Source: Escherichia phage vB_EcoM_G2248
Strand: one strand, 5' to 3'
Sequence record: MK327932.1
Length of the DNA: 64,000 nt
Shown: positions 2,579-62,347 of the stretch, one piece after another
How positions within the stretch are numbered: position 1 is the first letter of the stretch
How the letters are laid out: the number at the start of each line of letters is the position of its first letter
Translations under genes and position numbers: made by a program
Notes under the pieces: generated by a model
The model's input: only the letters and a program-made list of their open reading frames with translations
Database searches by the model: none
What the model was told of the DNA's origin: nothing

Positions 2579-2773
2579 TTACGCATTTTGATTCTCCTTT
2601 GTTACTAGATAACGAATTTGGTCTTGCATTGCGATCAGTTCCCAGCGTGCTACTTTCATCATGGAAACTGACTCTTTGAACATAATATTAGCTTTTTCCT
2701 TATTCCCTGTCAAGTAGATTTCTGCAATTTTTTCACAAAATTTTTGAGTTTCTTCATTCTTAAACGGTTTCAT
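2579..2773 (-). CDS. hypothetical small protein
   Basis: track ORF begins at TTG; first ATG gives MKPFKNEE...; preceded by promoter cassette at 2804-2832. Confidence 0.4.
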   Translation of the reverse strand: MKPFKNEETQKFCEKIAEIYLTGNKEKANIMFKESVSMMKVARWELIAMQDQIRYLVTKENQNA

Positions 2774-3204: not shown

Positions 3205-5028
3205 TTATGATTGCATCCAAATTTTGCGCTGATCTGCATCTTCACTATAGAGCAAATCGAATAGCTCTTTATAGTTTTCCGGTAACGTGATGATCTCCAT
3301 GACAGGATCGTTGATCACGCGATGATAGTCTGATTCTGTGAGCGATGCTAAACCTTTGATATATCGAATGTTGTAACCTTTGATATTATCTCGGTCGTTC
3401 TCGAAATCTTCTAGGTCATAATACCATCGAACATCATCACCTTTCTTTGGTTCCGCAATGATAATAGGTGTTTTGATAAACCGGATTCGTCCATCTTCGA
3501 ACAATTCAGGCCAACGTGCAAAGAAAGAGATCAGACTAGGTTTAATAGACCCGATCCCGTCAGTATCAGCGTCTGTCATAATCGCAATATTTTTGTATTG
3601 CATAACGTCCAGCGCATCAACACCAAATTGCAAACCAGTGATCGCCATGATGTTAAAAATTTCGGCGTTCTTAACGATCTTTGCCTCTGGTTGTTCCCAC
3701 GTTGTAAGAGTTTTACCTCGCAACGGGAAACCGCCATGTAAATCTTGATCACGTACAGAGATCAGATAGTTGATCGCGGAATCACCTTCCGTCAAAAACA
3801 GGGTAGTTTCTGCGTCAGTTCCAATAAGGTTAGCTTTAACGTGTTTTGCCACCTTAGCCCGTTTCGCTGCCTTTGCTGCCTTAGTCGCTGCCGCTTTATC
3901 TGCTGCCTCTTTGCGTGCCAGGACTACAGCAATAATAGGCATGATAATGTTTTCTTTCTTAGCAATGACTTTAGCCAGCTTTTTAAAATCCAGATCAATG
4001 TGTCGCTTGATATCACCAGTTGGGTTAGTCAAGCGTTCTTTTGTCTGTGAATCAAAACGAAGGTTAGGCAATTCACGAACAATAAGAATACAGGTCAATC
4101 CAGACTTAACCGCAGCTTTAGTAACATCAACCTTATATTCTTTCTTGATTCGTTTTACAATCTCTTCACAAAGATCATCTGTCACGTAGTCTACGTGTGT
4201 TCCCCCGTTTTTGGTAAACAGACCGTTAGCAAAGGATACTGATTTAAAACCTTCTCCCTCGACCGCCGGAACTAGGGCAAGTGAAAAGTTTTTATCTTCA
4301 ATGACAAACGGATCATCATTGTATAGTTTAGCATAATCCTTGAACTTGCTGGTTATCTTTTTGCCATTAAACTTAAACGTGATCTTAGGAAAGATTACAC
4401 TCAATGAATACATTCGATCGCAAATCACATCTGAAATTTCTTGTGACATGATCATACCTTCAAAATGATCGAAATCGGGGCAGAACGTAACCTTAGTTCC
4501 TTTCAGTTTTGACGGCTTAGATGACCAGCTAATATTTTCTGCACCATTGGTACATTGAACGGTCAGTTCATTCTCTCCGTCACACGTCACACCAGTAAAC
4601 CAGGACGAGAAAAATGATGTGAGCGCGCTTCCGATCCCATTCATACCCATAGTAACACGATTTGTATCATCAAAGTTAGACCCTGCTTTAGCTCGTGTCC
4701 ATGCAGCAACTGGTTGTGGAATCTGTTTCCCTTCTGGCGTCGTAACAATATGTTGCGGAATACCGCGACCATTATCTGTTACTGACACAATGTTATCTTT
4801 TATATCCACACTAATAACATTAGCGTACTCAAAATTAGTGCGGATCGCCTCGTCCACAGAATTGTCGATAATTTCATCAATAATTTTAACTAGACCGGGA
4901 ACGTATGAAACTTTGGTCCATTTTCCAAATAGGAAACGATTGTGTGATTCATAAGTCGTTGACCCGATGTACATTGAAGGTCTCTTAAGACAGTGAGCGC
5001 GATCATCCAACAGCAAAAATTCAGACAT
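3205..5028 (-). CDS. 39: DNA topoisomerase II large (ATPase) subunit, gp39 with gp60-equivalent C-terminus fused
   Basis: 607 aa; GyrB-type GHKL ATPase motifs (DNGRGIP, GLHG-like) and TOPRIM-like region; length matches T2-type uninterrupted 39 rather than split T4 39+60. Confidence 0.9.
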   Translation of the reverse strand: MSEFLLLDDRAHCLKRPSMYIGSTTYESHNRFLFGKWTKVSYVPGLVKIIDEIIDNSVDEAIRTNFEYANVISVDIKDNIVSVTDNGRGIPQHIVTTPEGKQIPQPVAAWTRAKAGSNFDDTNRVTMGMNGIGSALTSFFSSWFTGVTCDGENELTVQCTNGAENISWSSKPSKLKGTKVTFCPDFDHFEGMIMSQEISDVICDRMYSLSVIFPKITFKFNGKKITSKFKDYAKLYNDDPFVIEDKNFSLALVPAVEGEGFKSVSFANGLFTKNGGTHVDYVTDDLCEEIVKRIKKEYKVDVTKAAVKSGLTCILIVRELPNLRFDSQTKERLTNPTGDIKRHIDLDFKKLAKVIAKKENIIMPIIAVVLARKEAADKAAATKAAKAAKRAKVAKHVKANLIGTDAETTLFLTEGDSAINYLISVRDQDLHGGFPLRGKTLTTWEQPEAKIVKNAEIFNIMAITGLQFGVDALDVMQYKNIAIMTDADTDGIGSIKPSLISFFARWPELFEDGRIRFIKTPIIIAEPKKGDDVRWYYDLEDFENDRDNIKGYNIRYIKGLASLTESDYHRVINDPVMEIITLPENYKELFDLLYSEDADQRKIWMQS

Positions 5029-5034
5029 ATTATA

Positions 5035-5778
5035 TCATTCTCCGTCAGTTCGTTTCAGGTATTCCAATGCCGCATATAATCTTTGAGGATCGTCTTTGAA
5101 CATCCCTAATCCGGCATTACATTTTCCACAAAGAACACCTCTTATCTTACCAGTCTTATGATTATGGTCAAGATGTTTCCACTTTTGGCGTTTTCTCACG
5201 CCGCATCGTTCATTTATGAATTTTACACCGCATATCTCGCAATTGTCAACTCTGCCTAAAATTTCTAACGCTTCTCTTTTTGATATTTTTATACCATTTT
5301 CGGCATGATGATATGGCCTATCTAGTTCTCGCTCTCGCTTCTCAAACAATCGACACTCATCAGAACAATACTTTTGAGATACGTTTATTGCAACAAATGG
5401 TTTACCACATTTAGCGCATTCTCGTTCAATCTTTATGTTTTGTGCCTGGTCCAACGATGCGCAACGAGAACAGCAAAATTTATGATAGCCTTTAGAGTAT
5501 GTATGATAATTTACAGGATTTGGGCATCTTGCACATTTAACTATTCCTGTTATTCCGTGGCGCAATCTATAAACAGCCTCGTTATATGGTTGTTGATTTC
5601 TGAGACCTCCATTACAGAACTTAAACTCATTCCTTATAATCTGAAATTCAGCAGGATACAATTTTTCCATTTCTGGAATTTTATTTTCTTTAAAAAGATT
5701 TGAGTTTAGTCTATTTCCGCTTTTCGCCTCCAGAACATCAACAATAAACTTTTTGATGTTCACTTTTTCTCTCTCCAA
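5035..5778 (-). CDS. HNH endonuclease of the Endo VII type with N-terminal zinc-ribbon repeats (probable homing endonuclease)
   Basis: C-terminal HLDHNHKTGKIRGVLCGKCNAGLG matches the T4 endonuclease VII catalytic signature; several CxxC...CxxC ribbons upstream; locally AT-rich. Confidence 0.65.
   Translation of the reverse strand: MEREKVNIKKFIVDVLEAKSGNRLNSNLFKENKIPEMEKLYPAEFQIIRNEFKFCNGGLRNQQPYNEAVYRLRHGITGIVKCARCPNPVNYHTYSKGYHKFCCSRCASLDQAQNIKIERECAKCGKPFVAINVSQKYCSDECRLFEKRERELDRPYHHAENGIKISKREALEILGRVDNCEICGVKFINERCGVRKRQKWKHLDHNHKTGKIRGVLCGKCNAGLGMFKDDPQRLYAALEYLKRTDGE
5035..5778 (-). mobile_element. free-standing HNH homing-endonuclease-like gene inserted between topoisomerase and dexA
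   Basis: endonuclease signature plus compositional shift; no T4 counterpart at this position. Confidence 0.45.
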
Positions 5779-9594: not shown

Positions 9595-9623
9595 AATTGA
9601 TTCTCCTTAGTTGGTATGTGTGT

Positions 9624-9655: not shown

Positions 9656-10159
9656 TTAAATTAAAGAAAATTTGTAAATCTCTATCAGATCGCCATTACA
9701 CGCGTAAACTTCCTCGATCTCATCAAGGATCATGGTCGTCCCTGTCTTGTATATGCACTCGCGCTCATCTGCCAACATAGCATACAAAGACAGTCGAGTA
9801 GTCGGATTGTCATACTCTTTAGACACCACTCGGTCAATAGCATGTTCGTAATAATTCATGCAAGGCTTGGTAGGTTTTATTGCAATAATCTTTCCTGTTG
9901 CATAAACATCGGTTGCAAAGTCCTCTGCTGTTGATTGCAGTGGCGTAAAGCTCATAGGACGCTCTACAACGAAAGAATCACCTACAATTAAGGTATCCAG
10001 CTTACGGCCTTCTCTTTTGCTCACACCGCGATACAAGGCTTCATGATGCACTAACCGCTCAGTCTTTTCGATCAATCCATTAAGGATCGACATATCGATA
10101 TTTTCTTTAGAGTTCATCACTTCATCAATGATGTTAAGTTCTTCTGGTGTAAATTGCAT
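9656..10159 (-). CDS. ADP-ribosyltransferase, ModA/ModB-like
   Basis: 167 aa at the T4 modA/modB position; R-S-ExE-like triad candidates (LYRG, QSTAED, ADERE). Confidence 0.5.
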   Translation of the reverse strand: MQFTPEELNIIDEVMNSKENIDMSILNGLIEKTERLVHHEALYRGVSKREGRKLDTLIVGDSFVVERPMSFTPLQSTAEDFATDVYATGKIIAIKPTKPCMNYYEHAIDRVVSKEYDNPTTRLSLYAMLADERECIYKTGTTMILDEIEEVYACNGDLIEIYKFSLI

Positions 10160-15144: not shown

Positions 15145-15166
15145 AATATAATCCTCTCTAGATATG

Positions 15167-16531: not shown

Positions 16532-19240
16532 TTAAATGTCAAACAGGTCAGTAAGCGATGCAACTTTTTCGTATTGCAGCTTTGCAGCCGTGGTAATGTT
16601 CTCCAGCGGTTTGACGAAAGTCTTATTAAACAACAAAGGCCAGTCTAACCACTTCAACACTTCTGATTCAATTTCTGGCGGAATACGAGTACCAGACAAC
16701 CAACCAAAACAGATTTCTCCAAACGGATTTCGATCTTTAAGCGGTACAATCATAACCTTCTCGCCTTCACGAATCGGATCTAGTCCGAATTTTCTGGCAT
16801 TACGATTATAACACAATACACTCTTAACCGCATACGGACAACCCTTAATCGGATACCCGTTTGAATCGCTGTATTTCTGTAGGTTGTTTGCCGATGATAC
16901 CGCAGCAACCTCAAGATAGTCAAGTTTTCGAAACTCTTGCTCAAAAATACCGTAGTATTCCTGCAATGACTCTTCCCCTTCCTGCAACATACGGCGAATA
17001 CATTCTTTCAGTGATTTCTGACATGCTTTAGGGGTGGAGCTACGTTGCGTTTCCAAGCCCATGATTTTTAGCTTAGGTTCAGCAAAGCGCGTTCCTTCCA
17101 TATCCCAAACATTAAGAGCATAACGCTTTTTGCCAGTCCAGAATCCACCGATACCCGCAGATTTCAACGGAGGACCAGCAATTGCCTCGCGGTCCATAAA
17201 CATCAAGTGCTCGTAGTTGTTCATGTACTCGCATAACTCGCGATATCCCTTGTCGATAATAGGTTCCATTCGATGTTTACCGAAATTATCAAGGAAGTCA
17301 ACAAGTTTTTCGGTATCGTCGAAACGGTCTTCCCCGCCAACCTTATCAATAACATTGTTAACCAGCACATAAACGGAGTCAGTATCACAATAACGAACAT
17401 ATGCAAAATCGGTTGTTCCGCAAAGATCGTTTAAGTATTCGTTAATCTTACGCTCAATCCACTGAATTGCAAGCTGACCGAACAGTGTGATCGCACTAGC
17501 GTTACGGAGATCATAAAAACGGAATTTAGGATTCCCCAACGCACCATAAAGGGAGTTGATCAAAACTTTTCGAGAAAGCTGGTTTGTATTGCACAAGATC
17601 GACTCGCCTTTACATTCTTCCAGCAATTTCTCTAAGGCATCTTTACTTAATTCAGAAAGCATCGATTTAAACGCTTCATCGAAGTCGTGACGCACTTCAA
17701 CGCTATAGCTAATGGTTCCCCCATAAACATGATTTTCATCGTGTAGAATCGCTTTACAGAGTTCAGCATTGCGATCACATGCCAACATCATGTTTTTGTA
17801 CTGCTTACGCTGATCGAATACCTTTTTAATCTCAATCGGTACGATACCATGAATATCTTTTCTATACATCCATCCGTTAGGCGAGCAAGAATACTCATCA
17901 CTCGGACGTGGTGCAGTTTTATTGATATACTCGTGCATCGGTGCAGCATCAAAAGATCCAGCGATTGTTTCAGGCGAAATGTTAACCTGTCGAATAATAG
18001 ATGGGTACAGACTTGTTAAGTCAAAGCTCATCATCCAACGGTAAGCATTCGGCACAGGTTCTTTTACGAATGCGCCTGGATACGTCTGCTTAGGCTGTAT
18101 CTTGTTCTCTGGTACTACTTTACCCTCAGCTTTCAGAGATCCGAAGATAATAGCATCCCATACTTTCATTGGGTTATAAACATGGTTAAATTTAATCTTT
18201 GCATAGAAACATAGGCTATACACCAGATCAATAAAACCACGCTTTTTATCAATCGCCAGCACACGGTCAACGTCGCCGATGTTATAATCTATGTAAAGTT
18301 GATGGTTGTCATCACGCAATTTCTTTAACGGACCATCATAATCAACCTTACCGATTCCGGTCTCATATTCAGCAACATAATCTAACGCATATGTTGGTTG
18401 AGTCGTAAAGCTAAATTTCTTGTACAGGTCAATATAATCAAGGCTTTCGATCCCCATGATCGTAAATGCTTCACGCTCGTTGCCAAAATCATCCTGTGAG
18501 ATTCGGGATTTAATCTTACCGCACGGGCTTAGACGGTTAGCGGTTCTACTTCCGAACTTATTACTGATACGTTTAATGATATACGGTATATCGAATGTTT
18601 CTGTGTTCCAGCCAGTGAAACCAACGGGTCGGTTTTCCTCAAAGAATCGGACGTATTCTAACAGCAATTCATCTTCTGTGTCATAGACGTTATAAACAAC
18701 GCGCTCTACAATATCAGGTCGAAGAATAGACTTGCTTGCTTCCCAGATTTCATCGTTTTTTCCTTTCAAATCAAATACAAAGAAACGATCATGTACGGAA
18801 TCATAATGCGTAATTGCATCGATAGGATATTTCGCTTCTTCTGGTTTAGGAAATTCTGGGGCAGTGACCTCGATATCAACCCATGCTACACGGATTTTAT
18901 TTCGGTCATATCGAATCTCTCCTTTATACGTATCGGACAGATAGGAGATGATAAAATCATCCATCCCTAGTGCCTCTTGCCCCATCTCCCCCATCTTTTT
19001 ACGCCATTTGTTGGCCTCGTTCATAGAGGGGAATTTTTTAGCAATGCAAGGCTTGCCATAGATATCTTTATAATTCGTCACCATACCAGGCGCGGCATGA
19101 TGAAATAAAGTTGGCGTATATTCAACGTAACGCTCTTGTTCTTGTCCAGCATCATCAATATAACGCTCGTAGATCTTATCACCCACTCGCTCACATGACA
19201 GAAAATACATAATATAAACTCCTTCACTTACGAAAGACAC
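16532..19240 (-). CDS. 43: family B DNA polymerase gp43
   Basis: 902 aa; exonuclease and polymerase motifs (DxE, YGDTDS-like CDTDSVYV, KxxxNSxYG) collinear with T4 gp43. Confidence 0.95.
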   Translation of the reverse strand: MSFVSEGVYIMYFLSCERVGDKIYERYIDDAGQEQERYVEYTPTLFHHAAPGMVTNYKDIYGKPCIAKKFPSMNEANKWRKKMGEMGQEALGMDDFIISYLSDTYKGEIRYDRNKIRVAWVDIEVTAPEFPKPEEAKYPIDAITHYDSVHDRFFVFDLKGKNDEIWEASKSILRPDIVERVVYNVYDTEDELLLEYVRFFEENRPVGFTGWNTETFDIPYIIKRISNKFGSRTANRLSPCGKIKSRISQDDFGNEREAFTIMGIESLDYIDLYKKFSFTTQPTYALDYVAEYETGIGKVDYDGPLKKLRDDNHQLYIDYNIGDVDRVLAIDKKRGFIDLVYSLCFYAKIKFNHVYNPMKVWDAIIFGSLKAEGKVVPENKIQPKQTYPGAFVKEPVPNAYRWMMSFDLTSLYPSIIRQVNISPETIAGSFDAAPMHEYINKTAPRPSDEYSCSPNGWMYRKDIHGIVPIEIKKVFDQRKQYKNMMLACDRNAELCKAILHDENHVYGGTISYSVEVRHDFDEAFKSMLSELSKDALEKLLEECKGESILCNTNQLSRKVLINSLYGALGNPKFRFYDLRNASAITLFGQLAIQWIERKINEYLNDLCGTTDFAYVRYCDTDSVYVLVNNVIDKVGGEDRFDDTEKLVDFLDNFGKHRMEPIIDKGYRELCEYMNNYEHLMFMDREAIAGPPLKSAGIGGFWTGKKRYALNVWDMEGTRFAEPKLKIMGLETQRSSTPKACQKSLKECIRRMLQEGEESLQEYYGIFEQEFRKLDYLEVAAVSSANNLQKYSDSNGYPIKGCPYAVKSVLCYNRNARKFGLDPIREGEKVMIVPLKDRNPFGEICFGWLSGTRIPPEIESEVLKWLDWPLLFNKTFVKPLENITTAAKLQYEKVASLTDLFDI

Positions 19241-19292: not shown

Positions 19293-19655
19293 TTAGCGTC
19301 CGATCTGATATTTCTCGATCAGCGTCCACTCTTCTTTCTGTTTGAAAGACAGTACACGGAAATTATTAACTTCGGTAGTTTCAAAATCACTATCAATCAG
19401 GGTACACAGATTCCACTGCGCCAGAAGTTTTGCAATGTTATTACGGCGTAATTCATCTTCCCACGTCATTTTAACACTACGACCATCTAATTTCAACAAC
19501 TCCTTGAAATGAACGATGTAATAGCGCCCTTTCTTCTGGAGAATATGACAAGACTGATACAGTGTCTTGTCACGATTGTTGGCAATGCCGCAGCGGGTTA
19601 AAGTCTCCTTAATTTTAAGGAAGTTTTCAGGACTAATCAAATTAATTTCAATCAT
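19293..19655 (-). CDS. regA: translational repressor RegA
   Basis: 120 aa; near-identical blocks to T4 RegA (VLYQSCHILQKKG, NNFRV). Confidence 0.9.
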   Translation of the reverse strand: MIEINLISPENFLKIKETLTRCGIANNRDKTLYQSCHILQKKGRYYIVHFKELLKLDGRSVKMTWEDELRRNNIAKLLAQWNLCTLIDSDFETTEVNNFRVLSFKQKEEWTLIEKYQIGR

Positions 19656-33466: not shown

Positions 33467-33508
33467 ATTTGATTCTCCTGTAAGGTTGTATCTCGTCTTG
33501 ATGAATAT

Positions 33509-34726: not shown

Positions 34727-36589
34727 TTACATGTGCTTAACGCGGTTTACCATCTCGGAGTGTTTCCCGTGGTTGAATGGACGCAGATCAACAGATCCAA
34801 GATATCCACTAACGCGACGGATAACATTCATCTTTTCCAGATTGTCATTGCCGCAATCAGGACAAACAAAACCAGACTCGGTCGCTCTCATTTCCTTAGT
34901 AGATCCGCATACATGACATACATCAGAAGGAGTATTAACACCGAAGTAGTGCAATTTATCCATTGCATAGTCTACTACAGTTTCAAGACCTTTCAGGTTG
35001 TTTTTCATGTCTGGGAACTCAACATAAGAGATCATGCCACCGGACGCCAGCCAGTGATAATCTTTCTCAAAGTCGATTTTCTCAAATGGAGTGACTTTCC
35101 GGTCTACGTCAAGGTGGAATGAGTTGGTGTACCAGTCTTTATCGGTAGCACCCTTAACAATACCAAATTGCTCTCGGTCCAGTCGATTAAATCGATAGCA
35201 AAGGCTCTCGGCTGGCGTACCGTAAAGACTAAACCCAAGTCCGGTTTCATCCTTCCATTTTTCAGTATAATGACGCAAGATCTTAAGAATATGTTTACCG
35301 TATCGCTGCGCATCTTCCGAATCAAACGGATGAACACCAAACAGGACGCTCAATACCTCATGTAAACCAATATATCCAAGAGAGATACTAGCGCGACCAT
35401 CTTTCAGAACTTCCAAAATTTCATCGTTTTGATGAATACGGAAAAATGCACCTTCTGTATACAGTACAGGAGCAACATTGGCTTTAGCCCCTTTTAAAGC
35501 GTCTACGCGACTCATGAGCGCATCAAAGCAAATAGGCATACGATTAGCTAGCTCTTGTTCGAATAGCTCAATTCTGCGCATTACAGACGCTTTACCAGCA
35601 CGACGCGCGGCAATAAGGGCAATACGCGGAAGATTTAGAGTCACAACACCTAAGTTATTACGTCCGTCTAATACTTCTTCGCCTTTCTCATTATGCCACA
35701 CACCCAGGAAGCTACGACAACCCATCGGGCTAACCGGAACACTAGATCCAGTGATACTACGGTTATTCTTCGCAGAGATATAATCAGGGTAAAGACGCTT
35801 ACTAGAACATTCCAATGCAAGTTGCTTAATGTCGTAGTTCGGATCTTCCGGTTTAAGGTTTAATCCTTCTTCTAAGAACATCACCAGCTTAGGAAACACC
35901 GGAGTTATACCGTCTTTACCTAAACCTTTAGTTCGAACTTTCAGGATCGCTTTCTGAATCAGTTTTTCTTCCCAGCTAGTACCCATACCAAAGGTTAAAG
36001 TCACAAAAGGCGTTTGACCGTTGGTGGAGAACAAAGTGTTGATTTCATATTCCAACGCTTGATACCCGTCTAGCGTTTCTTTTTCTGTCTTCTCTTGTGC
36101 ATAGAGAGTATCAGCTTTGATTCCGTAGGTTTCGGCATCAGCAAGGTGTTTATGATATGTTTTCTCAACGTATGGCGCTAAAACCTGATCGATGTTTGCA
36201 ATTGTGGTCCCGCCATATTGATGACTTGCCACCTGTGCGATAATTTGAGCGGTTACAGCACAAGCAACGCCGATCGATTTCGGACTTTCGATTTGTGCGC
36301 TACCCAATTTAAAACCATTCTCTAACATGTCTTTGAGATTAACAAGACAGCAGTTAGTAAACGGCATAGCGGGTGCATAATCCATATCATGATAATGAAT
36401 ATCACCATCTACATGCGCTTTATAGATGTGCTCAGGTAACACGGTTTTAGCAATCTGTTTAGACACAGCACCAGCAATCAGATCTCGACGTGTCGGGAAT
36501 GTTCGCGCGTCTTTGTTCGCGTTCTCTTTGCTTACTTCGTTTTCTTTACCCGTTGCGATCTCTGTAATGTCTTTGATTAGTTTTTCCAT
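34727..36589 (-). CDS. nrdD: anaerobic ribonucleoside-triphosphate reductase NrdD
   Basis: 620 aa, uninterrupted; C-terminal zinc ribbon CHVCG...CPDCG. Confidence 0.9.
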   Translation of the reverse strand: MEKLIKDITEIATGKENEVSKENANKDARTFPTRRDLIAGAVSKQIAKTVLPEHIYKAHVDGDIHYHDMDYAPAMPFTNCCLVNLKDMLENGFKLGSAQIESPKSIGVACAVTAQIIAQVASHQYGGTTIANIDQVLAPYVEKTYHKHLADAETYGIKADTLYAQEKTEKETLDGYQALEYEINTLFSTNGQTPFVTLTFGMGTSWEEKLIQKAILKVRTKGLGKDGITPVFPKLVMFLEEGLNLKPEDPNYDIKQLALECSSKRLYPDYISAKNNRSITGSSVPVSPMGCRSFLGVWHNEKGEEVLDGRNNLGVVTLNLPRIALIAARRAGKASVMRRIELFEQELANRMPICFDALMSRVDALKGAKANVAPVLYTEGAFFRIHQNDEILEVLKDGRASISLGYIGLHEVLSVLFGVHPFDSEDAQRYGKHILKILRHYTEKWKDETGLGFSLYGTPAESLCYRFNRLDREQFGIVKGATDKDWYTNSFHLDVDRKVTPFEKIDFEKDYHWLASGGMISYVEFPDMKNNLKGLETVVDYAMDKLHYFGVNTPSDVCHVCGSTKEMRATESGFVCPDCGNDNLEKMNVIRRVSGYLGSVDLRPFNHGKHSEMVNRVKHM

Positions 36590-37129: not shown

Positions 37130-37159
37130 AATATAATCCTCTCGTTGTTAAGTGGGAGT

Positions 37160-38362: not shown

Positions 38363-38393
38363 AATATAATCCTCTCGTTGTTTAGATGGGAGT

Positions 38394-38422: not shown

Positions 38423-38985
38423 GCGTTAAATGACTTTTGGATCTCTTTCAGTTCAGCTACTTTATCGGCGCTATATTTTGCTTGATGTTCCATGCGCTTA
38501 AGCTCACCTTTGATATAGGTTTCTAGCTTAGGTTTATTCTCAATCAGAAAATCTTTCAGGTCATCGGCATTTTTAAAGTATAGCTGATTATCAAAGCTAA
38601 AATCTTCCAGCGTCAATGATACCAAAGAAGACTTCGCAAACAAGTTAATCAGATCTTCCAGAGATTCTTCTTTCTTAATTGGTTTCATTTCTTCAAACTG
38701 CTTTTTAGTGATGCGTTTAAAGTATTTTCGCTCGTTTGCAGCAATCAGAACAGATGCACCTTCATACTCATGAGTTTCTACCAGATACACACGCCCCATC
38801 GCATCAACAGTGAGAACTTTAAAGCCGTTACAAAGCACGTCATACAAGAACTTATTATGTTGCGGACATCGTTTGATAAATTCTGCGACTGTTTCTGCAC
38901 TACGGAAAGTATAGTAACGACCTCGTTCAAAAACAGCGTCATTGGGTGACTTAACCGAATATACTTTGTATGTTTTCTGTACCAT
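38419..38985 (-). CDS. paralogous family member G
   Basis: start at internal ATG with GAGGATTATATT SD (MVQKTYKVY...); ERKYFKRI motif. Confidence 0.5.
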   Translation of the reverse strand: MVQKTYKVYSVKSPNDAVFERGRYYTFRSAETVAEFIKRCPQHNKFLYDVLCNGFKVLTVDAMGRVYLVETHEYEGASVLIAANERKYFKRITKKQFEEMKPIKKEESLEDLINLFAKSSLVSLTLEDFSFDNQLYFKNADDLKDFLIENKPKLETYIKGELKRMEHQAKYSADKVAELKEIQKSFNA

Positions 38986-38999
38986 AATATAATCCTCTA

Positions 39000-39272: not shown

Positions 39273-39303
39273 TGTTGATTCTCCTTCTTGATTAGATGGG
39301 AGT

Positions 39304-41367: not shown

Positions 41368-41377
41368 TATATAATCC

Positions 41378-41674
41378 TCATATCTCAGAGAATAGAATCT
41401 CTGTTAGCTTCACTGACTGCTCTCTGAATGTTAGCGTATACTCGAAAGGAAAGTCAACACCTAATTTCAGAAGAGAATAGCCTACCGCCTCTTTATGCTT
41501 ATCTGTTAGGGCAATCCTAACCAATTCCAGTTGAATCTCTTTAGGCGGTGAATGGATAGTAACACGGGTATCATGCAATGTCCAGTCACCATTACGAATC
41601 AAGATTAACGGTTTATCGTCATTGAAGATCACCGACCCCTTTCCGGTCGGTGAGTGTTTTATACTAATCATCAA
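41378..41674 (-). CDS. hypothetical protein
   Basis: 98-aa ORF. Confidence 0.45.
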   Translation of the reverse strand: MMISIKHSPTGKGSVIFNDDKPLILIRNGDWTLHDTRVTIHSPPKEIQLELVRIALTDKHKEAVGYSLLKLGVDFPFEYTLTFREQSVKLTEILFSEI

Positions 41675-42494: not shown

Positions 42495-42528
42495 AATATA
42501 ATCCTCACATCGTTCATTTGATGCGGTT

Positions 42529-43161: not shown

Positions 43162-43203
43162 TTTGATTCTCCTTAAGAAAGTGTGTTTCGTTTTGATGTG
43201 TGT

Positions 43204-44768: not shown

Positions 44769-44988
44769 TTCTTTTATATGGTACTATAACAGGATTAATA
44801 CAGCAAGCACCAATTACGTTATGAGCACCACAATTTAAGCATTTATAATCATGGAACTTATTAAGGAATCGCCCGAACTCATAACCGACTAACGCCGCGT
44901 GTACTTGAGTATCGATCTCATCCATATCAGCCAATGTTTTAACCTTCATAATATAATCCTCAAATACTGGTTTTGCGAAGATGGTCAT
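44752..44988 (-). CDS. hypothetical Cys-rich protein
   Basis: 78-aa ORF; CLNCGAHNVIGACC. Confidence 0.4.
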   Translation of the reverse strand: MTIFAKPVFEDYIMKVKTLADMDEIDTQVHAALVGYEFGRFLNKFHDYKCLNCGAHNVIGACCINPVIVPYKRNETEE

Positions 44989-45250: not shown

Positions 45251-45280
45251 ATTTGATTCTCCTTAGTTGGTATGGTTATC

Positions 45281-45533: not shown

Positions 45534-45572
45534 TTTTGATTCTCCTAGAAAGTGTCGTGTTTCGATGGGTGT

Positions 45573-46785: not shown

Positions 46786-46814
46786 TTTGGTTCTCCTTTG
46801 TTGTCGATGTGTGC

Positions 46815-46892: not shown

Positions 46893-49037
46893 TTATTCAC
46901 GTCCATTTGTATAGTAGTGTTTGAATCGACCGTAACCAGTTTCAATGGTCATTGTTCTTTGGTGAACAATAGCCCAATAACCGTTACAGGAATCTTGCAG
47001 ATACAAATCTTTACCTTTCATAAACTCATTAAAGATTGTTTTCTGCCAGTCATAATAGACAGAATCTTCAATCTTATCCATCCAACCGTGTGGGTCTTCA
47101 AGCAGTTCAACAAGTTCATCGATAACCCAATACGGACACGGACTAAATCGACCTTTACTAAATTCGTTGAACACAGTAACGGTTTTAGCTTCCGGTCTAG
47201 GTTCATCAGGTTCTTCCGGTCGACGATTAACCACAACCTGAACATATTTTGTATAACCGATAATTTCCCCAGAGTCCAACTCATCGTTATTGTTCTGGTC
47301 AGCAAAAGCAACGAATCTATAGACTCCAGAGTCACCTATAGTAGCATTAACTTTTGTGTATATCGGTGTTTTGGGATCGATAATCGGCAACCGAACACCA
47401 TTTTTACTAAACTCATACGTTGGAACGTATGTAGAAGGAGGATTTAATGTCGTTGCTTCTAATGTCAAAGTATCCCCTTCCATAATCTGTACAGGATGAG
47501 GTCCGTCAAATTCCATATTAGGAACAACTTCAACATTATAGGTTGCACGCCCTGCAATATCATAATCATGATGCGCACTATATGGGTCTACACTAGGACT
47601 ATCTCTATATTCATGCGCCCAAATGCCATTATGTTCACGATCCGCAGAGTCAGTAATTTTATACTCTTTAGCCTCAATTGGTAGTTCGGTCACAAAAACA
47701 TCATTTTTTGTTATAACCAAAGAACGAGTTTGAGTAAAATCGCTACTTGCGGGTGGCTCTGGATCGACGATCTTAATAACAATAGGTTCACCAACCTCAA
47801 TATTTCGATAATCGTATTCTTTGTCATAAATGTCAAGCATACGACGGTCGTAAAATAATGGCCTTCCTTTATTGAGGTCATATGCACCATCTTGATTAGA
47901 AGGGGCAACTAGTAATTGTAAAGCAACGCTATTATCATACTGCAAGTCCGATAAAGTAATTCGGTCATAACCTTCATCGCCATATTTTTTGCTTTGTAGA
48001 GTTTTACCACCCAACATCCACGTAAAATAAACATTATTATTAATCAAACTATAATGTCGATTCCACGTATTATCGGATGTTACTAATGGCATATCTAGAT
48101 TGACGGTGGACCCAGAAGGATAACGAAATTCAACGGAATTAAAATCACGATCAAAAAATTCATTGTCTTTGATTGTTACCGTGAATCTATGACGATCACC
48201 ATCAATATATGCTGTCCCTTCTCTGGTTTCACTTGCGGCCTTATATGCACGAACCAAAGCAACATAAACACCCGCATCGGTTTCTTGAGCATGTTTCGTT
48301 ACAAACAGAGTCCTGTCTGTAGATTCATAAATTAAGCTACCATCTTCTCTTTCCAGACGATAACGGACAACGGTATATTCATCATTGGCGGGAGAATCGT
48401 CTGTCACCGTAAAATAGACAGGAGCATATTTCTGTGCGTTAAAAATTTCCGCGCTTTCCTGAATGGTGGCCTCAAACGGATAAACAAATTTCACGTCACC
48501 CGCTTCATCGCTAAGTTCCATTCTATATGTGCCAGAAAATTCAGGCCATGCAAATTTTGCAATTTTAAATTCACGATGGTCTAAACCAAGATCCCCGTCA
48601 ATAGTATCAACAAGACCGTCATTATAATAAAGGTCGATAGAAATGTTTTCTGGGATATGAATACGAAAAACAATTTTAGCCTTTATTTCGTCACCAACCA
48701 CAAAGGAAGTTGGAGGATATACATATTCAACATACTGATTATCAAATAATTCAAATGTGAAATTTTCCGTGCCGATATCAACGGATTCACCAGCAAAATC
48801 ATTATCATCTTGGGCATAGCCACGAACATTAACAGACCATCCTGTTTTATCGCTTTCTTTCACAGATTTTAATTCAAAAGACGGTGTATCGGTTGTAGCA
48901 ACAACCACCCCACCTTTTTTCCAAACATAACCTTTTTTCGGTTTAGTTGGATCATCTGATTCGGCAGCAATTGAGCACGCGAACGTATGAGGAAGCCAAA
49001 TGGTTGTGTTAATGCTAGTATCTTTTACTTCTGGCAT
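46893..49037 (-). CDS. large beta-rich protein, function unknown
   Basis: 714 aa; strong SD GGGGGAA; repetitive beta-strand-like segments and distinct C-terminal domain; followed by terminator 46856-46883. Confidence 0.55.
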   Translation of the reverse strand: MPEVKDTSINTTIWLPHTFACSIAAESDDPTKPKKGYVWKKGGVVVATTDTPSFELKSVKESDKTGWSVNVRGYAQDDNDFAGESVDIGTENFTFELFDNQYVEYVYPPTSFVVGDEIKAKIVFRIHIPENISIDLYYNDGLVDTIDGDLGLDHREFKIAKFAWPEFSGTYRMELSDEAGDVKFVYPFEATIQESAEIFNAQKYAPVYFTVTDDSPANDEYTVVRYRLEREDGSLIYESTDRTLFVTKHAQETDAGVYVALVRAYKAASETREGTAYIDGDRHRFTVTIKDNEFFDRDFNSVEFRYPSGSTVNLDMPLVTSDNTWNRHYSLINNNVYFTWMLGGKTLQSKKYGDEGYDRITLSDLQYDNSVALQLLVAPSNQDGAYDLNKGRPLFYDRRMLDIYDKEYDYRNIEVGEPIVIKIVDPEPPASSDFTQTRSLVITKNDVFVTELPIEAKEYKITDSADREHNGIWAHEYRDSPSVDPYSAHHDYDIAGRATYNVEVVPNMEFDGPHPVQIMEGDTLTLEATTLNPPSTYVPTYEFSKNGVRLPIIDPKTPIYTKVNATIGDSGVYRFVAFADQNNNDELDSGEIIGYTKYVQVVVNRRPEEPDEPRPEAKTVTVFNEFSKGRFSPCPYWVIDELVELLEDPHGWMDKIEDSVYYDWQKTIFNEFMKGKDLYLQDSCNGYWAIVHQRTMTIETGYGRFKHYYTNGRE

Positions 49038-49747: not shown

Positions 49748-49780
49748 GAGTCATTCCCCCAGATTGAAAATATTCAGTTA

Positions 49781-49788
49781 TATTTATA
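49781..49788 (-). promoter_or_regulatory. candidate T4-type late promoter (TATAAATA)
   Basis: minus-sense TATAAATA about 33 nt upstream of the ATG of the secreted-protein gene 49445-49747. Confidence 0.35.
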
Positions 49789-49815
49789 ATCTGGGGCTTT
49801 ATTTATGATTAACTC

Positions 49816-51567: not shown

Positions 51568-51927
51568 TTAGTCACGGGAAGACAACCCAGCCATAAAACG
51601 GCTTAACAGTGTGTCGCGATAAGCAAAGCATAATTGCTTATCAGGGGCAGTATCACACAGGTTGCGTTTTGTTTTAGCAAAGCTGGCAATACTCAGATCC
51701 CATGCTCGATTTTTTCGTTTTTCGTCTCGACCTTGTTTGTATGCTTCATCAAGTTCGAGCGCGATAAAATCACTACACATGTTATCATCATCACAGAAAG
51801 TTTTAATGATCTTTTTGTTGATCTCAAATCCTTTGTATTCGAACTTTGGATAATGGCGCTCATTACTAGCAAGCGCACCAGCCGATAACATCATAGCAAT
51901 CATAGCAATTATTGTCAACTTTTTCAT
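51568..51927 (-). CDS. small secreted protein (signal peptide)
   Basis: 119 aa; N-terminal MKKLTIIAMIAMMLSAGALA. Confidence 0.5.
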   Translation of the reverse strand: MKKLTIIAMIAMMLSAGALASNERHYPKFEYKGFEINKKIIKTFCDDDNMCSDFIALELDEAYKQGRDEKRKNRAWDLSIASFAKTKRNLCDTAPDKQLCFAYRDTLLSRFMAGLSSRD

Positions 51928-51934
51928 ATATTCC

Positions 51935-52525
51935 TCAATAGCGTTTAGTCTTAAGAATGCCTTTACTCTTTAGATGGTTGGCCTTTTTTAGTACGTCATC
52001 AGCATAACCTAATCCGGCTTTATAGTTCCATCCAGCATTGTAAGAAGCTAGCGCGAGTCGGATATTACCGTTTCGAACATCCAGCCAGTATGCTAACTCA
52101 TCCATCGCGTAGAATGCAGAAACCTCGCGATTCATGATAAAGTTGATAGTCTGGCGATCACTCATTTTAACACCGCGCTTTGCATTTTTCGCTTTCACCG
52201 TTTTAAGGTAATTTTGAAATAATCCATAAGCATGATGATTTTTCTTTGGTGCTAAGTTTGCACCCGCGCTTGATTCTTGCCATGCGATACCCGCCAGGAT
52301 GTGGCCTAAACCCTTTCCGTCATAGCGAATATTCGGATGGTCATTTTTCAACTTACCGCTTTTCTCGAATTGTTCGCCATATTGATAGGCGAAATGTAAA
52401 TTATCTAGTTGGTGTGCTGTAAAGTTGTCTATCGGCGCTTTTTTGATCGGTGCGCTAGTCGATGCGTGTGTAGCACCAACGGCTAGTGACAGACTCAATA
52501 CTATCGCTTTTAGAACTTTTAACAT
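51935..52525 (-). CDS. secreted lytic transglycosylase (SLT domain)
   Basis: 196 aa; signal peptide; SLT catalytic motif GIAWQESS and AYNAGWN. Confidence 0.65.
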   Translation of the reverse strand: MLKVLKAIVLSLSLAVGATHASTSAPIKKAPIDNFTAHQLDNLHFAYQYGEQFEKSGKLKNDHPNIRYDGKGLGHILAGIAWQESSAGANLAPKKNHHAYGLFQNYLKTVKAKNAKRGVKMSDRQTINFIMNREVSAFYAMDELAYWLDVRNGNIRLALASYNAGWNYKAGLGYADDVLKKANHLKSKGILKTKRY

Positions 52526-52612: not shown

Positions 52613-53035
52613 TTATTGGTCTACCTTCAAAACAACCGCCGACATTTTACCCGCCAGTCGTTTTGGATTCTCTATAATCATTCGACAGCATAGACCGTGA
52701 TATGGCTTACCCTCTTCGATTAGATCTACTGTCATCCCGATCCACATGTTGCCGTCAGTAATTTCTAATCGATTAGGTCGGTCTTCCATTTTCAGGAAGT
52801 CGAAGATCTCCGGCAAACGAGTTTCTATCTTATTGAATAATTCCATTGTCTTATGTTCATCGATATGACGATCGGTTAGACGGTCGATCATATGCGGACT
52901 AAAGCGAATGAAAATATACTCACCGTAACCATCATTCAAGCACTTTTCTTTGATCTGCGCATTGGTTTTGCGCATTTCGGTTTCGAAGAATCTACGCAGC
53001 TTACTACGGCGAACATGTACGTTAATTGTTTCCAT
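52613..53035 (-). CDS. regB: RegB endoribonuclease
   Basis: start at internal ATG (METINVHVRRSKLRRFFE...) paralleling T4 RegB; RLEITDGN block. Confidence 0.6.
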   Translation of the reverse strand: METINVHVRRSKLRRFFETEMRKTNAQIKEKCLNDGYGEYIFIRFSPHMIDRLTDRHIDEHKTMELFNKIETRLPEIFDFLKMEDRPNRLEITDGNMWIGMTVDLIEEGKPYHGLCCRMIIENPKRLAGKMSAVVLKVDQ

Positions 53036-53039
53036 TTTA

Positions 53040-53375
53040 TTATCCTTTCTTAAACAAATTGCGAATCCAGTATACAAACGGGATTTCTTTAAACTTGAAT
53101 TTCTCTATAGTTAATTCTTTAGTAGCAAGATGAATACCATAAGCATCATGTGTCACGATATGCCATTTTCTATAGTCCAAATGTGAACAACCGTCTGGAT
53201 CTAGGTTAATAAGAGTTTCTCGCTCACTAGGATTATTTTTCCACAATTTTGTAATAGGATCGCACATAATTCGACCTAGCGTACCATGAATAATCTCACA
53301 ACGGTAAAGTTTTCCAGCAGTGAGATAGGCGCACCCGTCATAGTCGGTATAAACAAACACTTCTTTAATACTCAT
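53040..53375 (-). CDS. hypothetical protein (triplet family, CxHLD...W)
   Basis: track ORF overlaps promoter 53404-53432; ATG at 53373-53375 (MSIKEVF...). Confidence 0.45.
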   Translation of the reverse strand: MSIKEVFVYTDYDGCAYLTAGKLYRCEIIHGTLGRIMCDPITKLWKNNPSERETLINLDPDGCSHLDYRKWHIVTHDAYGIHLATKELTIEKFKFKEIPFVYWIRNLFKKG

Positions 53376-53403
53376 TTTAATACTCCTTTGTTTCGATGGG
53401 GGT

Positions 53404-53432
53404 ATATTACTACCCCCGTTTTGTTGTGTCAA
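53404..53432 (-). promoter_or_regulatory. early promoter cassette, stem-loop enclosing the -10
   Basis: TTGACA-N17-TAATAT within GGGGGTAGTAATATACCCCC. Confidence 0.5.
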
Positions 53433-58409: not shown

Positions 58410-58430
58410 AATATAATCCTCACATTAAAT

Positions 58431-58631
58431 CTAAAATTTGTTAACGACGAATTGCATAATTAGACTAATCACAAACATTGCAAACCAAGTATAAATGCAA
58501 CAGATAAAAGCTACATACAATTCAATCTGGTCAGAGAATACACCGGGTAAAAGCATTAGCAAAATAACAACAGTAAAAACGCTAGCGATACCCGCAACAA
58601 AACCAATATCATTTTTACTAATCGTCATCAA
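58431..58631 (-). CDS. small membrane protein
   Basis: 66 aa, two TM-like segments. Confidence 0.45.
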   Translation of the reverse strand: MMTISKNDIGFVAGIASVFTVVILLMLLPGVFSDQIELYVAFICCIYTWFAMFVISLIMQFVVNKF

Positions 58632-58825
58632 GTCACCGTTTTGTAAAGAAACACAATAAAATCCCAGACAAAAAAGACAGTGAAAATAATCATCGTCAAG
58701 ACAATAAACACTGTCAGATTTTCATCGTTAGTTAATTCATGACCGTCCATCCATATAATCACCAGATAAAACATCGAAATCAAGGAGGCGAATACCAAAT
58801 TATAAAACTCTTCCTTTAATGACAT
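58628..58825 (-). CDS. small membrane protein
   Basis: 65 aa. Confidence 0.45.
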   Translation of the reverse strand: MSLKEEFYNLVFASLISMFYLVIIWMDGHELTNDENLTVFIVLTMIIFTVFFVWDFIVFLYKTVT

Positions 58826-59344: not shown

Positions 59345-59386
59345 TTTGATACTCCTTAGTAGTTCGTGTTTCGTTTCGATGGGTGT

Positions 59387-60060: not shown

Positions 60061-60089
60061 TTTGATTCTCCCGTTTCGTTGATGGTTGT

Positions 60090-60312: not shown

Positions 60313-60358
60313 AATTTGATTCTCCGTTTAAGAAAGTGTGTTTCGTTTCGATGGGTGT

Positions 60359-61869: not shown

Positions 61870-61900
61870 TTTGATTCTCCTTTCGTTTGTTTGTGGGGGT

Positions 61901-62310: not shown

Positions 62311-62347
62311 TTTGATTCTCCTAAGTGTGTTTCGTTTCGATATGTGC

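Follow-up and report, generated by a model that had tools for sequence, protein, structure and literature searches.

In bacteriophage T4, the endoribonuclease RegB cuts early mRNAs within the GGAG of their Shine-Dalgarno (SD) sequences. This activity, which a first, sequence-only reading of the DNA studied here had pointed to, is established in T4 (PMC3014915). The site used by RegB together with ribosomal protein S1 is an 11-nt stretch of single-stranded RNA with the consensus GGAGRAYARAA (Durand et al. 2006, PMC1702504; Uzan & Miller 2010, PMC3014915), in which GGA is invariant, position 4 is G or rarely U, and a 7-nt A-rich tail follows (PMC1702504). Among T4 and SELEX substrates, A is strongest at positions 6, 8 and 11, C is almost excluded from the tail, U is very rare at positions 9 and 10, and the T4 optimum is GGAGAAUAAAA (PMC1702504). 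GGAG alone is insufficient, as 26 of the 68 intergenic GGAG sequences of T4 are cut and 42 are not; GGAU is cut only with a strict A-rich tail, and the two copies at ORFs motB.2 and 55.2 are the only ones cut among 30 in T4 (PMC1702504). The cut inactivates translation at once, and phosphorylation of the resulting 5'-OH end by polynucleotide kinase opens the mRNA to RNase G/E (PMC3014915). The RegB of phage RB49 has also been reported to cleave GGAG- or GGAU-containing RNA, with stimulation by S1 (PMC3014915, which cites Piesiniene et al. 2004, NAR 32:5582).

RB49 and phi1 carry promoter-early/stem-loop (PeSL) cassettes in front of ORFans in their hyperplastic regions (Arbiol et al. 2010, PMC2839356; Comeau et al. 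2014, PMC4122927). A PeSL has a TTGACA-16/17-TAnnnT promoter and G/C-rich stem-loops, and its definition explicitly takes in the SD and the start codon at the 3' end; cross-overs between cassettes were mapped between the SD and the -10 box (PMC2839356, PMC4122927). Both papers treat the SD as a part of the cassette, and RegB is mentioned in neither.

RegB and its GGAG/GGAU specificity are published, as are the occurrence and activity of RegB in RB49 and the PeSLs that include an SD. What we add is a modest, testable extension of this textbook T4 biology: an 11-nt, RegB/S1-like block with C at position 8 (C8) is built into the cassettes of an RB49-type early region.

The regB gene of an RB49/JSE-type phage

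We analyzed a 64,000-nt stretch of Escherichia phage vB_EcoM_G2248 (MK327932.1), hereafter the window. A 6-kb piece around regB shares 97.5% identity with Krischvirus RB49, and ~97% with phage JSE and many relatives. By transfer of the JSE annotation, the window corresponds to JSE coordinates 1 to ~65,000, from rIIA to gene 3, and essentially all of its genes lie on the minus strand. The window is thus the early half of a Krischvirus (RB49/JSE-type) genome. Our gene set (n = 128) consists of the transferred JSE annotation plus a few window-specific ORFs, and the 40 nt upstream of each start were listed.

The ORF at 52613-53035 (minus strand; 140 aa plus stop) had been named RegB endoribonuclease by the sequence-only reading. 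Its product matches Pfam PF10715 (REGB_T4) at 1.1e-48 over model positions 4-148 of 148, PHROG 1323 “endoribonuclease” at 6e-51 and the T4 RegB structure (PDB 2HX6) at 2e-26, and it is 100% identical in amino acids to the annotated JSE regB product. The gene order vs (51568-51927), vs.1 (51935-52525), regB is identical in T4. These matches and the T4-like position make the call correct, and on sequence comparison the ORF is regB from a T4-like coliphage of the RB49/JSE type, a gene that public genomes already annotate. T4 RegB is a homologue with 42% identity, and its gene has the same neighbours. RB49 RegB, from the same genus, is essentially identical to the window protein, and the gene itself shows no material difference.

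We aligned 12 RegB sequences: the window protein, T4 RegB, six from other genera or unclassified Straboviridae and four metagenomic relatives. The family diversity was drawn from a tblastn search against a phage collection; a word-indexed protein search gave 8 relatives. Across this alignment the residues corresponding to T4 H48 and E19 never vary, and the one corresponding to R52 is nearly invariant. Odaert et al. 2007 reportedly describe a role of E19 in T4 RegB. R52L is the T4 regB mutant used by Durand et al. 2006 (PMC1702504), and H48 and H68 are the catalytic histidines of the T4 enzyme (PMC3014915). Where T4 has H68, the window RegB has Asn, and G, K, Y or S is found in other lineages; as this column varies across the family, the residue is not family-defining. 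We therefore rejected the possibility that the change from H68 to Asn inactivates the enzyme, all the more since RB49 RegB is reported to be active (PMC3014915).

The regB transcript and its own Shine-Dalgarno sequence

In the promoter scan and the intergenic listing, a strong σ70-type early promoter (TTGACA-17-TAATAT; 53404-53432, minus strand) belonging to a PeSL cassette drives h97-regB. The first cistron, h97, is a 111-aa ORF (53040-53375) whose start is preceded by the class A-like 11-mer GGAGUAUUAAA (53376-53386, minus strand; class A is described below), and regB starts 4 nt past the h97 stop. The window regB is thus the second cistron of the transcript from the cassette promoter, whereas in T4 a promoter lies directly upstream of regB.

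The SD region of regB reads AAGGAUAAUAAAAUG and gives the 11-mer GGAUAAUAAAA (53035-53045, minus strand), the last A of which is the A of the AUG. This candidate autoregulatory RegB site combines GGAU with a strict A-rich tail and has 0 mismatches to the RegB/S1 rule if U is allowed at position 4; in the T4 system, too, the regB SD carries GGA(G/U) with a canonical A-rich tail. Within the first 50 kb of T4 this 11-mer is present twice, once directly ahead of the annotated motB.2 start (8157) and once at 38698, which we take to be near 55.2 on the T4 map. Among regB SDs, RB49 is the lone GGAU case, and RegB cuts this GGAU in vivo (PMC3014915), which suggests autoregulation. The identity with the motB.2 11-mer and the in vivo cut in RB49 together make autoregulatory cleavage of the regB message well supported, in part by published experiment.

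The regB SD is GGAG in all seven other phages compared. It is also of the GGAG type in two distant Krischvirus-like metagenomic contigs, L011 (regB at 4864-5265; GGAGUAUAGAA) and L012 (10001-10420; GGAGGAUUUGA), which indicates that the GGAU autoregulatory site is confined to the RB49/JSE group.

Two stereotyped ribosome-binding sites

Two motifs recur at the ribosome-binding sites (RBSs) of the window. Class A, GGAGAATCAA, is present in 11 exact copies and in 15 copies with at most one mismatch, compared with 5.5 ± 2.3 in shuffled sequences, none of which (0/100) reaches 15; 14 of these 15 copies lie on the minus strand directly 5' of a start codon. Class B, GAGGATTATAT, has 9 exact copies, each directly before an ATG, and 18 with at most one mismatch (shuffles 1.6 ± 1.4). 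All exact copies of both motifs are on the transcribed strand and abut start codons. The 50-kb late-gene region of JSE contains neither motif (0 copies), and the other early region of JSE (118-166 kb) holds 13 further exact copies of GGAGAATCAAA and 4 of GAGGATTATAT. Judged against the shuffles, the two repeated motifs of the sequence-only reading are real and non-random.

That reading had also placed the motifs at most early genes, and here it went too far. Including near copies, class A precedes ~14 and class B ~14 of the 128 genes, ~22% together, and any GGAG 8-17 nt before the start is found at 46 of the 128 (36%). Only among genes directly downstream of an early promoter does “most” hold, with class A at 13 of 23 and class B at 4 more. 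The accompanying description, “GGAG-containing”, applies to class A and does not apply to class B, in which GAGGATTATATT contains GGAU.

Class A at early promoter cassettes

The window contains 23 intergenic regions with TTGAC(A/G/T)-16/17-(T/C/A)AnnnT promoters, each ending in an SD and an ATG. Many of them have G-run/C-run inverted repeats between or over the hexamers, and the hexamers are followed by a C/A-rich leader (AUCGAAACGAAACAC...) that runs to the SD and ATG. The set was curated by eye from the intergenic listing and rechecked; an automatic promoter regex missed several cassettes. With σ70 -35/-10 hexamers, in many cases a stem-loop, an SD and ATG, an intergenic location and repeated occurrence, these regions have the features that define PeSLs and are the cassettes known from RB49 and phi1.

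Any GGAG at SD distance precedes 17 of the 23 promoter-proximal genes versus 29 of the 105 others (Fisher p = 6e-5). For A-rich GGAG, defined by at most two mismatches to GGAGRAYARAA, the numbers are 13 of 23 versus 9 of 105 (Fisher p = 1.2e-6), an enrichment that bears out the link drawn earlier between the stereotyped RBS and the promoter cassettes. The one-mismatch sites are RBSs in 10 of 10 cases, with 0 inside a CDS. Among JSE late genes, GGAG is found at 12 of 54 and A-rich GGAG at 4 of 54.

The class A 11-mer GGAGAAUCAAA stands before the promoter-proximal genes h128 (62311-62321), h127 (61870-61880), h120 (60315-60325), h119 (60061-60071), h82 (45535-45545), h80 (45252-45262), h73 (43162-43172) and h54 (33468-33478), all on the minus strand. 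Variants precede four further promoter-proximal genes on the same strand: h116 (GGAGUAUCAAA, 59345-59355), h86 (GGAGAACCAAA, 46786-46796), h63 (GGAGAAUCAAC, 39274-39284) and srd (GGAGAAUCAAU, 9596-9606). The copy before h3 (2587-2597, minus strand) has no promoter directly upstream and lies within the end of the preceding ORF.

Class A compared with the T4 RegB/S1 site

When the 14 window sites are anchored only on GGAG, class A appears as an 11-nt block, GGAGAAUCAAA, in the same register as GGAGRAYARAA: positions 5-11 carry 1.3-2 bits and the flanks mostly less than 1 bit. In a pool of 29 sites from the window and JSE 118-166 kb, for which the pattern partly fixed positions 1-10 and left position 11 and the boundaries free, position 11 is A in 26 and position 12 drops to ~0.5 bits. 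The spacing of the block to the AUG is not fixed, at 10 to 13 nt from G1 to the A across the 29 sites. A conserved 11 nt at a floating distance from the AUG points to the length and register of a RegB/S1 site rather than to an SD plus a fixed spacer.

GGA is followed by G at position 4 in 14 of 14 window sites and in all 29 pooled sites. In the tail, 6 of the 7 positions fit the T4 rule; the exception is position 8, where the T4 site strongly prefers A and 28 of the 29 sites have C. By the T4 rule class A thus has one mismatch, and it falls on a sensitive position. The T4 optimum (GGAGAAUAAA, GGAGAATAAA) is absent from the sites of the window and JSE 118-166 kb, and no perfect match to GGAGRAYARAA occurs anywhere in the window. 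In the other respects compared, namely a length of 11 nt, a GGA start, location in early initiation regions and unstructured RNA, the class A candidates are like T4 sites. Predicted cassette leaders are 19-40 nt long with predicted MFEs of -0.6 to -9.4 kcal/mol, most of them between -2 and -5; the predicted class A leaders, directly behind σ70 promoters, are 22-40 nt long with predicted MFEs of ~-2 to -8 kcal/mol. These leader folds replaced base pairing in fixed -35..+30 windows, a measure that was non-discriminating (0.49 for A-rich GGAG versus 0.45 for other GGAG). In contig L012, the RegB of which is only 64% identical, GGGAGAATCAAA is kept behind early promoters.

How much weight C8 deserves depends on how the tail is read. 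The 7-nt tail is thought to be read through host S1, a protein common to T4 and the window phage, so that an adaptation of the phage enzyme to C8 cannot simply be assumed and offers no easy escape. A single deviation is tolerated in T4, where the regB SD GGAGAAUAACA, in our own reading, has C at position 10 and is described as cut in the review (PMC3014915). Taken together, the sequence comparisons make RegB cleavage of class A somewhat more probable than its absence, and we infer a RegB-mediated shut-off of the class A genes.

In the annotation of the T4 record, ModB ADP-ribosylates ribosomal protein S1, the RegB cofactor. The window has a modB homologue (9656-10159, minus strand) behind its own PeSL promoter, and modification of S1 by phage ModB could influence the choice of RegB sites.

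We also considered depletion of GGAG inside coding sequences as a sign of RegB-driven selection. Among tetramers, GGAG shows the strongest depletion in the minus-strand CDSs of the window, with 71 observed against 165 ± 11 after codon shuffling (obs/exp 0.43, z = -9). The ratio is 0.43-0.51 in early regions, 0.57-0.63 in late genes and 0.65 (rank 6) in T7, which is not a T4-type phage and has no annotated regB. The depletion in late genes and in T7 indicates that it is mostly generic SD avoidance, and we rejected it as a sign of RegB-driven selection; a weak hint is left in the additional depletion of early regions (0.43-0.51).

Class B and RegB

Class B, GGAUUAUAUUA or GAGGAUUAUAUU, lacks GGAG and has GGAU followed by the tail UAUAUUA. 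Against GGAGRAYARAA it shows 4 mismatches, positions 9 and 10 both being U, and it lacks the strict A-rich tail required of GGAU sites. The combination of GGAU with a poor 3' context predicts that class B is RegB-resistant, and GAGGAUUAUAUU is not expected to be a RegB target. The coordinated RegB shut-off proposed by the sequence-only reading is partly supported for class A, which is enriched behind promoters and site-like, and is not expected for class B, which fails the GGAU rule.

All exact copies of class B are on the minus strand. One, GAGGAUUAUAU(U)AUG, lies before rIIA (2111-2121), and the others precede gene 40 (15146-15156), h60 (37131-37141), frd.2 (38364-38374), h62 (38987-38997), h67 (41369-41379), h71 (42496-42506), h79 (44951-44961) and h113 (58411-58421). 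Three of them follow promoters (h71, frd.2, h60) and six are internal to operons (rIIA, gene 40, h62, h67, h79, h113); frequently the leading TGA doubles as the stop codon of the preceding gene.

Class B, (T)GAGGAUUAUAUUAUG, is A+U-rich from SD to AUG and resembles T4 RegA operators (rIIB, AAAAUUAUGUAC; gene 44, AAAUUAUGAUU). Class B precedes rIIA in the window and cd in JSE. Both rIIA and cd are RegA-sensitive in T4. The window encodes regA at 19293-19655 (minus strand), and class B may stand for genes repressed by RegA rather than for a RegB class.

A proposed shut-off of cassette transcripts

We propose, as somewhat more probable than not, a model in which GGAGAAUCAAA in the PeSL cassettes is a near-consensus RegB/S1 target and its cutting silences the cassette-driven immediate-early transcripts together. 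Roughly every second PeSL cassette ends in this 11-mer (13 of 23 in the window, and 13 more in the other early region of JSE), which would place the target in short immediate-early leaders that lack structure, ~10-30 nt from their predicted 5' end. With the help of host ribosomal protein S1, RegB would cut between GG and AG and thereby destroy the SD of the first cistron; since class A lies near the 5' end, a single cut would strip both the SD and the triphosphate end from the whole unit. As in T4, the 5'-OH end would then be converted by the phage polynucleotide kinase into an entry site for RNase E/G, and pseT is present in JSE. The mostly ORFan cassette-driven immediate-early transcripts would in this way be silenced together. 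The steps of this shut-off are drawn by analogy with T4.

The alternative that survives best, which we regard as possible but doubtful, is that class A reflects cassette homology only: the RBS would simply be the 3' end of the PeSL, kept uniform by recombination and by selection for strong initiation, and it would be a poor substrate or a non-substrate, with RegB acting mainly on its own mRNA and on a few other sites. Because the SD and ATG are part of the recombining cassette, homogenisation could give the same invariance without any role of RegB, and the published PeSL cassette, with its SD and start codon at the 3' end and its cross-overs between SD and -10 box (PMC2839356, PMC4122927), already explains the stereotypy of the RBS in part. 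The near-exclusion of C from cut T4 sites and the strong A at position 8 (PMC1702504), the lack of a perfect consensus site in the window and the silence of both PeSL papers (PMC2839356, PMC4122927) on RegB point the same way. However, plain homology tracts are not expected to end at an 11-nt boundary, and here the leader from the -10 box to the SD differs in both sequence and length from cassette to cassette, whereas an invariant stretch of exactly 11 nt from GGA floats by 0-2 nt against the AUG. The T4 regB SD, with the C at position 10 noted above and its reported cut (PMC3014915), also shows that one deviation can be tolerated.

We consider it unlikely that class A is a translation signal unrelated to RegB, in which the SD and an A-rich, unstructured spacer maximise initiation on abundant immediate-early mRNAs, possibly through S1. 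GGAG followed by such a spacer makes a good initiation region, the leaders are unstructured, and GGAG is a frequent SD among T4-type phages (PMC3014915). However, the motif is never used by late genes (0 copies in 50 kb), although their expression is high as well, and the close match to the RegB/S1 footprint would be left unexplained; in addition, a translation signal is compatible with RegB targeting, and the two are not mutually exclusive.

The broadest reading, that GGAGAAUCAAA and GAGGAUUAUAUU are both RegB targets and essentially the whole early gene set is shut off, is highly improbable: although both motifs are confined to early regions and GAGGAU holds a GGAU of the kind cut by T4 RegB in two cases (PMC1702504), only those 2 of 30 T4 GGAU sequences are cut, a strict A-rich tail is needed (PMC1702504; the T4 motB.2 11-mer is GGAUAAUAAAA), class B has 4 mismatches with the very rare U at positions 9 and 10, and GGAG precedes just 36% of the genes.

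If RegB does cut class A, ~25 immediate-early transcripts per genome, mostly encoding ORFans of hyperplastic regions, would be silenced by one nuclease through a signal carried on a mobile cassette, and RegB and PeSLs, two separately described features of RB49-type phages, would become linked. If class A is not cut, the finding reduces to an annotated gene and a known repeat. Reading the 11-nt block as RegB/S1-like is our addition to the published cassette. More tentatively, PeSLs may be complete mobile “express-then-destroy” modules that combine promoter, terminator and RBS with a fixed RegB/S1 variant, GGAGAAUCAAA, so that an ORFan captured between two cassettes would gain both immediate-early expression and a RegB-timed shut-off; the invariant C8 would then imply a shifted 3' specificity of the Krischvirus RegB/S1 pair. 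If class A is cut, the natural C8 variant would also be a test of how RegB and S1 share the recognition of the 11-nt site.

Other features of the window

Two genes of the window differ in structure from their JSE counterparts. The nrdD gene (34727-36589, minus strand) is an intact single ORF, whereas JSE nrdD is split by a homing-endonuclease insertion. Gene 43 (DNA polymerase, 892 aa; 16532-19210, minus strand) is also an intact single ORF in the window; the JSE annotation splits it into two CDSs that lie ~530 bp apart.

Four ORFs, at 5035-5778, 2579-2773, 46893-49037 and 58628-58825 (all minus strand), have no JSE counterpart at the same place. Two of the four are small. Another is a Cys-rich 247-aa ORF between gene 39 and the FmdB-like gene, with a CxxC/HNH-like pattern suggestive of a nuclease of the homing or endonuclease VII-like kind. 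The fourth, upstream of rI.-1, is a 714-aa ORF that stands in place of the JSE gene annotated as “tail fiber protein; host specificity”. The 68-nt spacer before rI (49748-49815, minus strand) contains the late-promoter motif TATAAATA, an isolated late-type signal in a region that is otherwise early.
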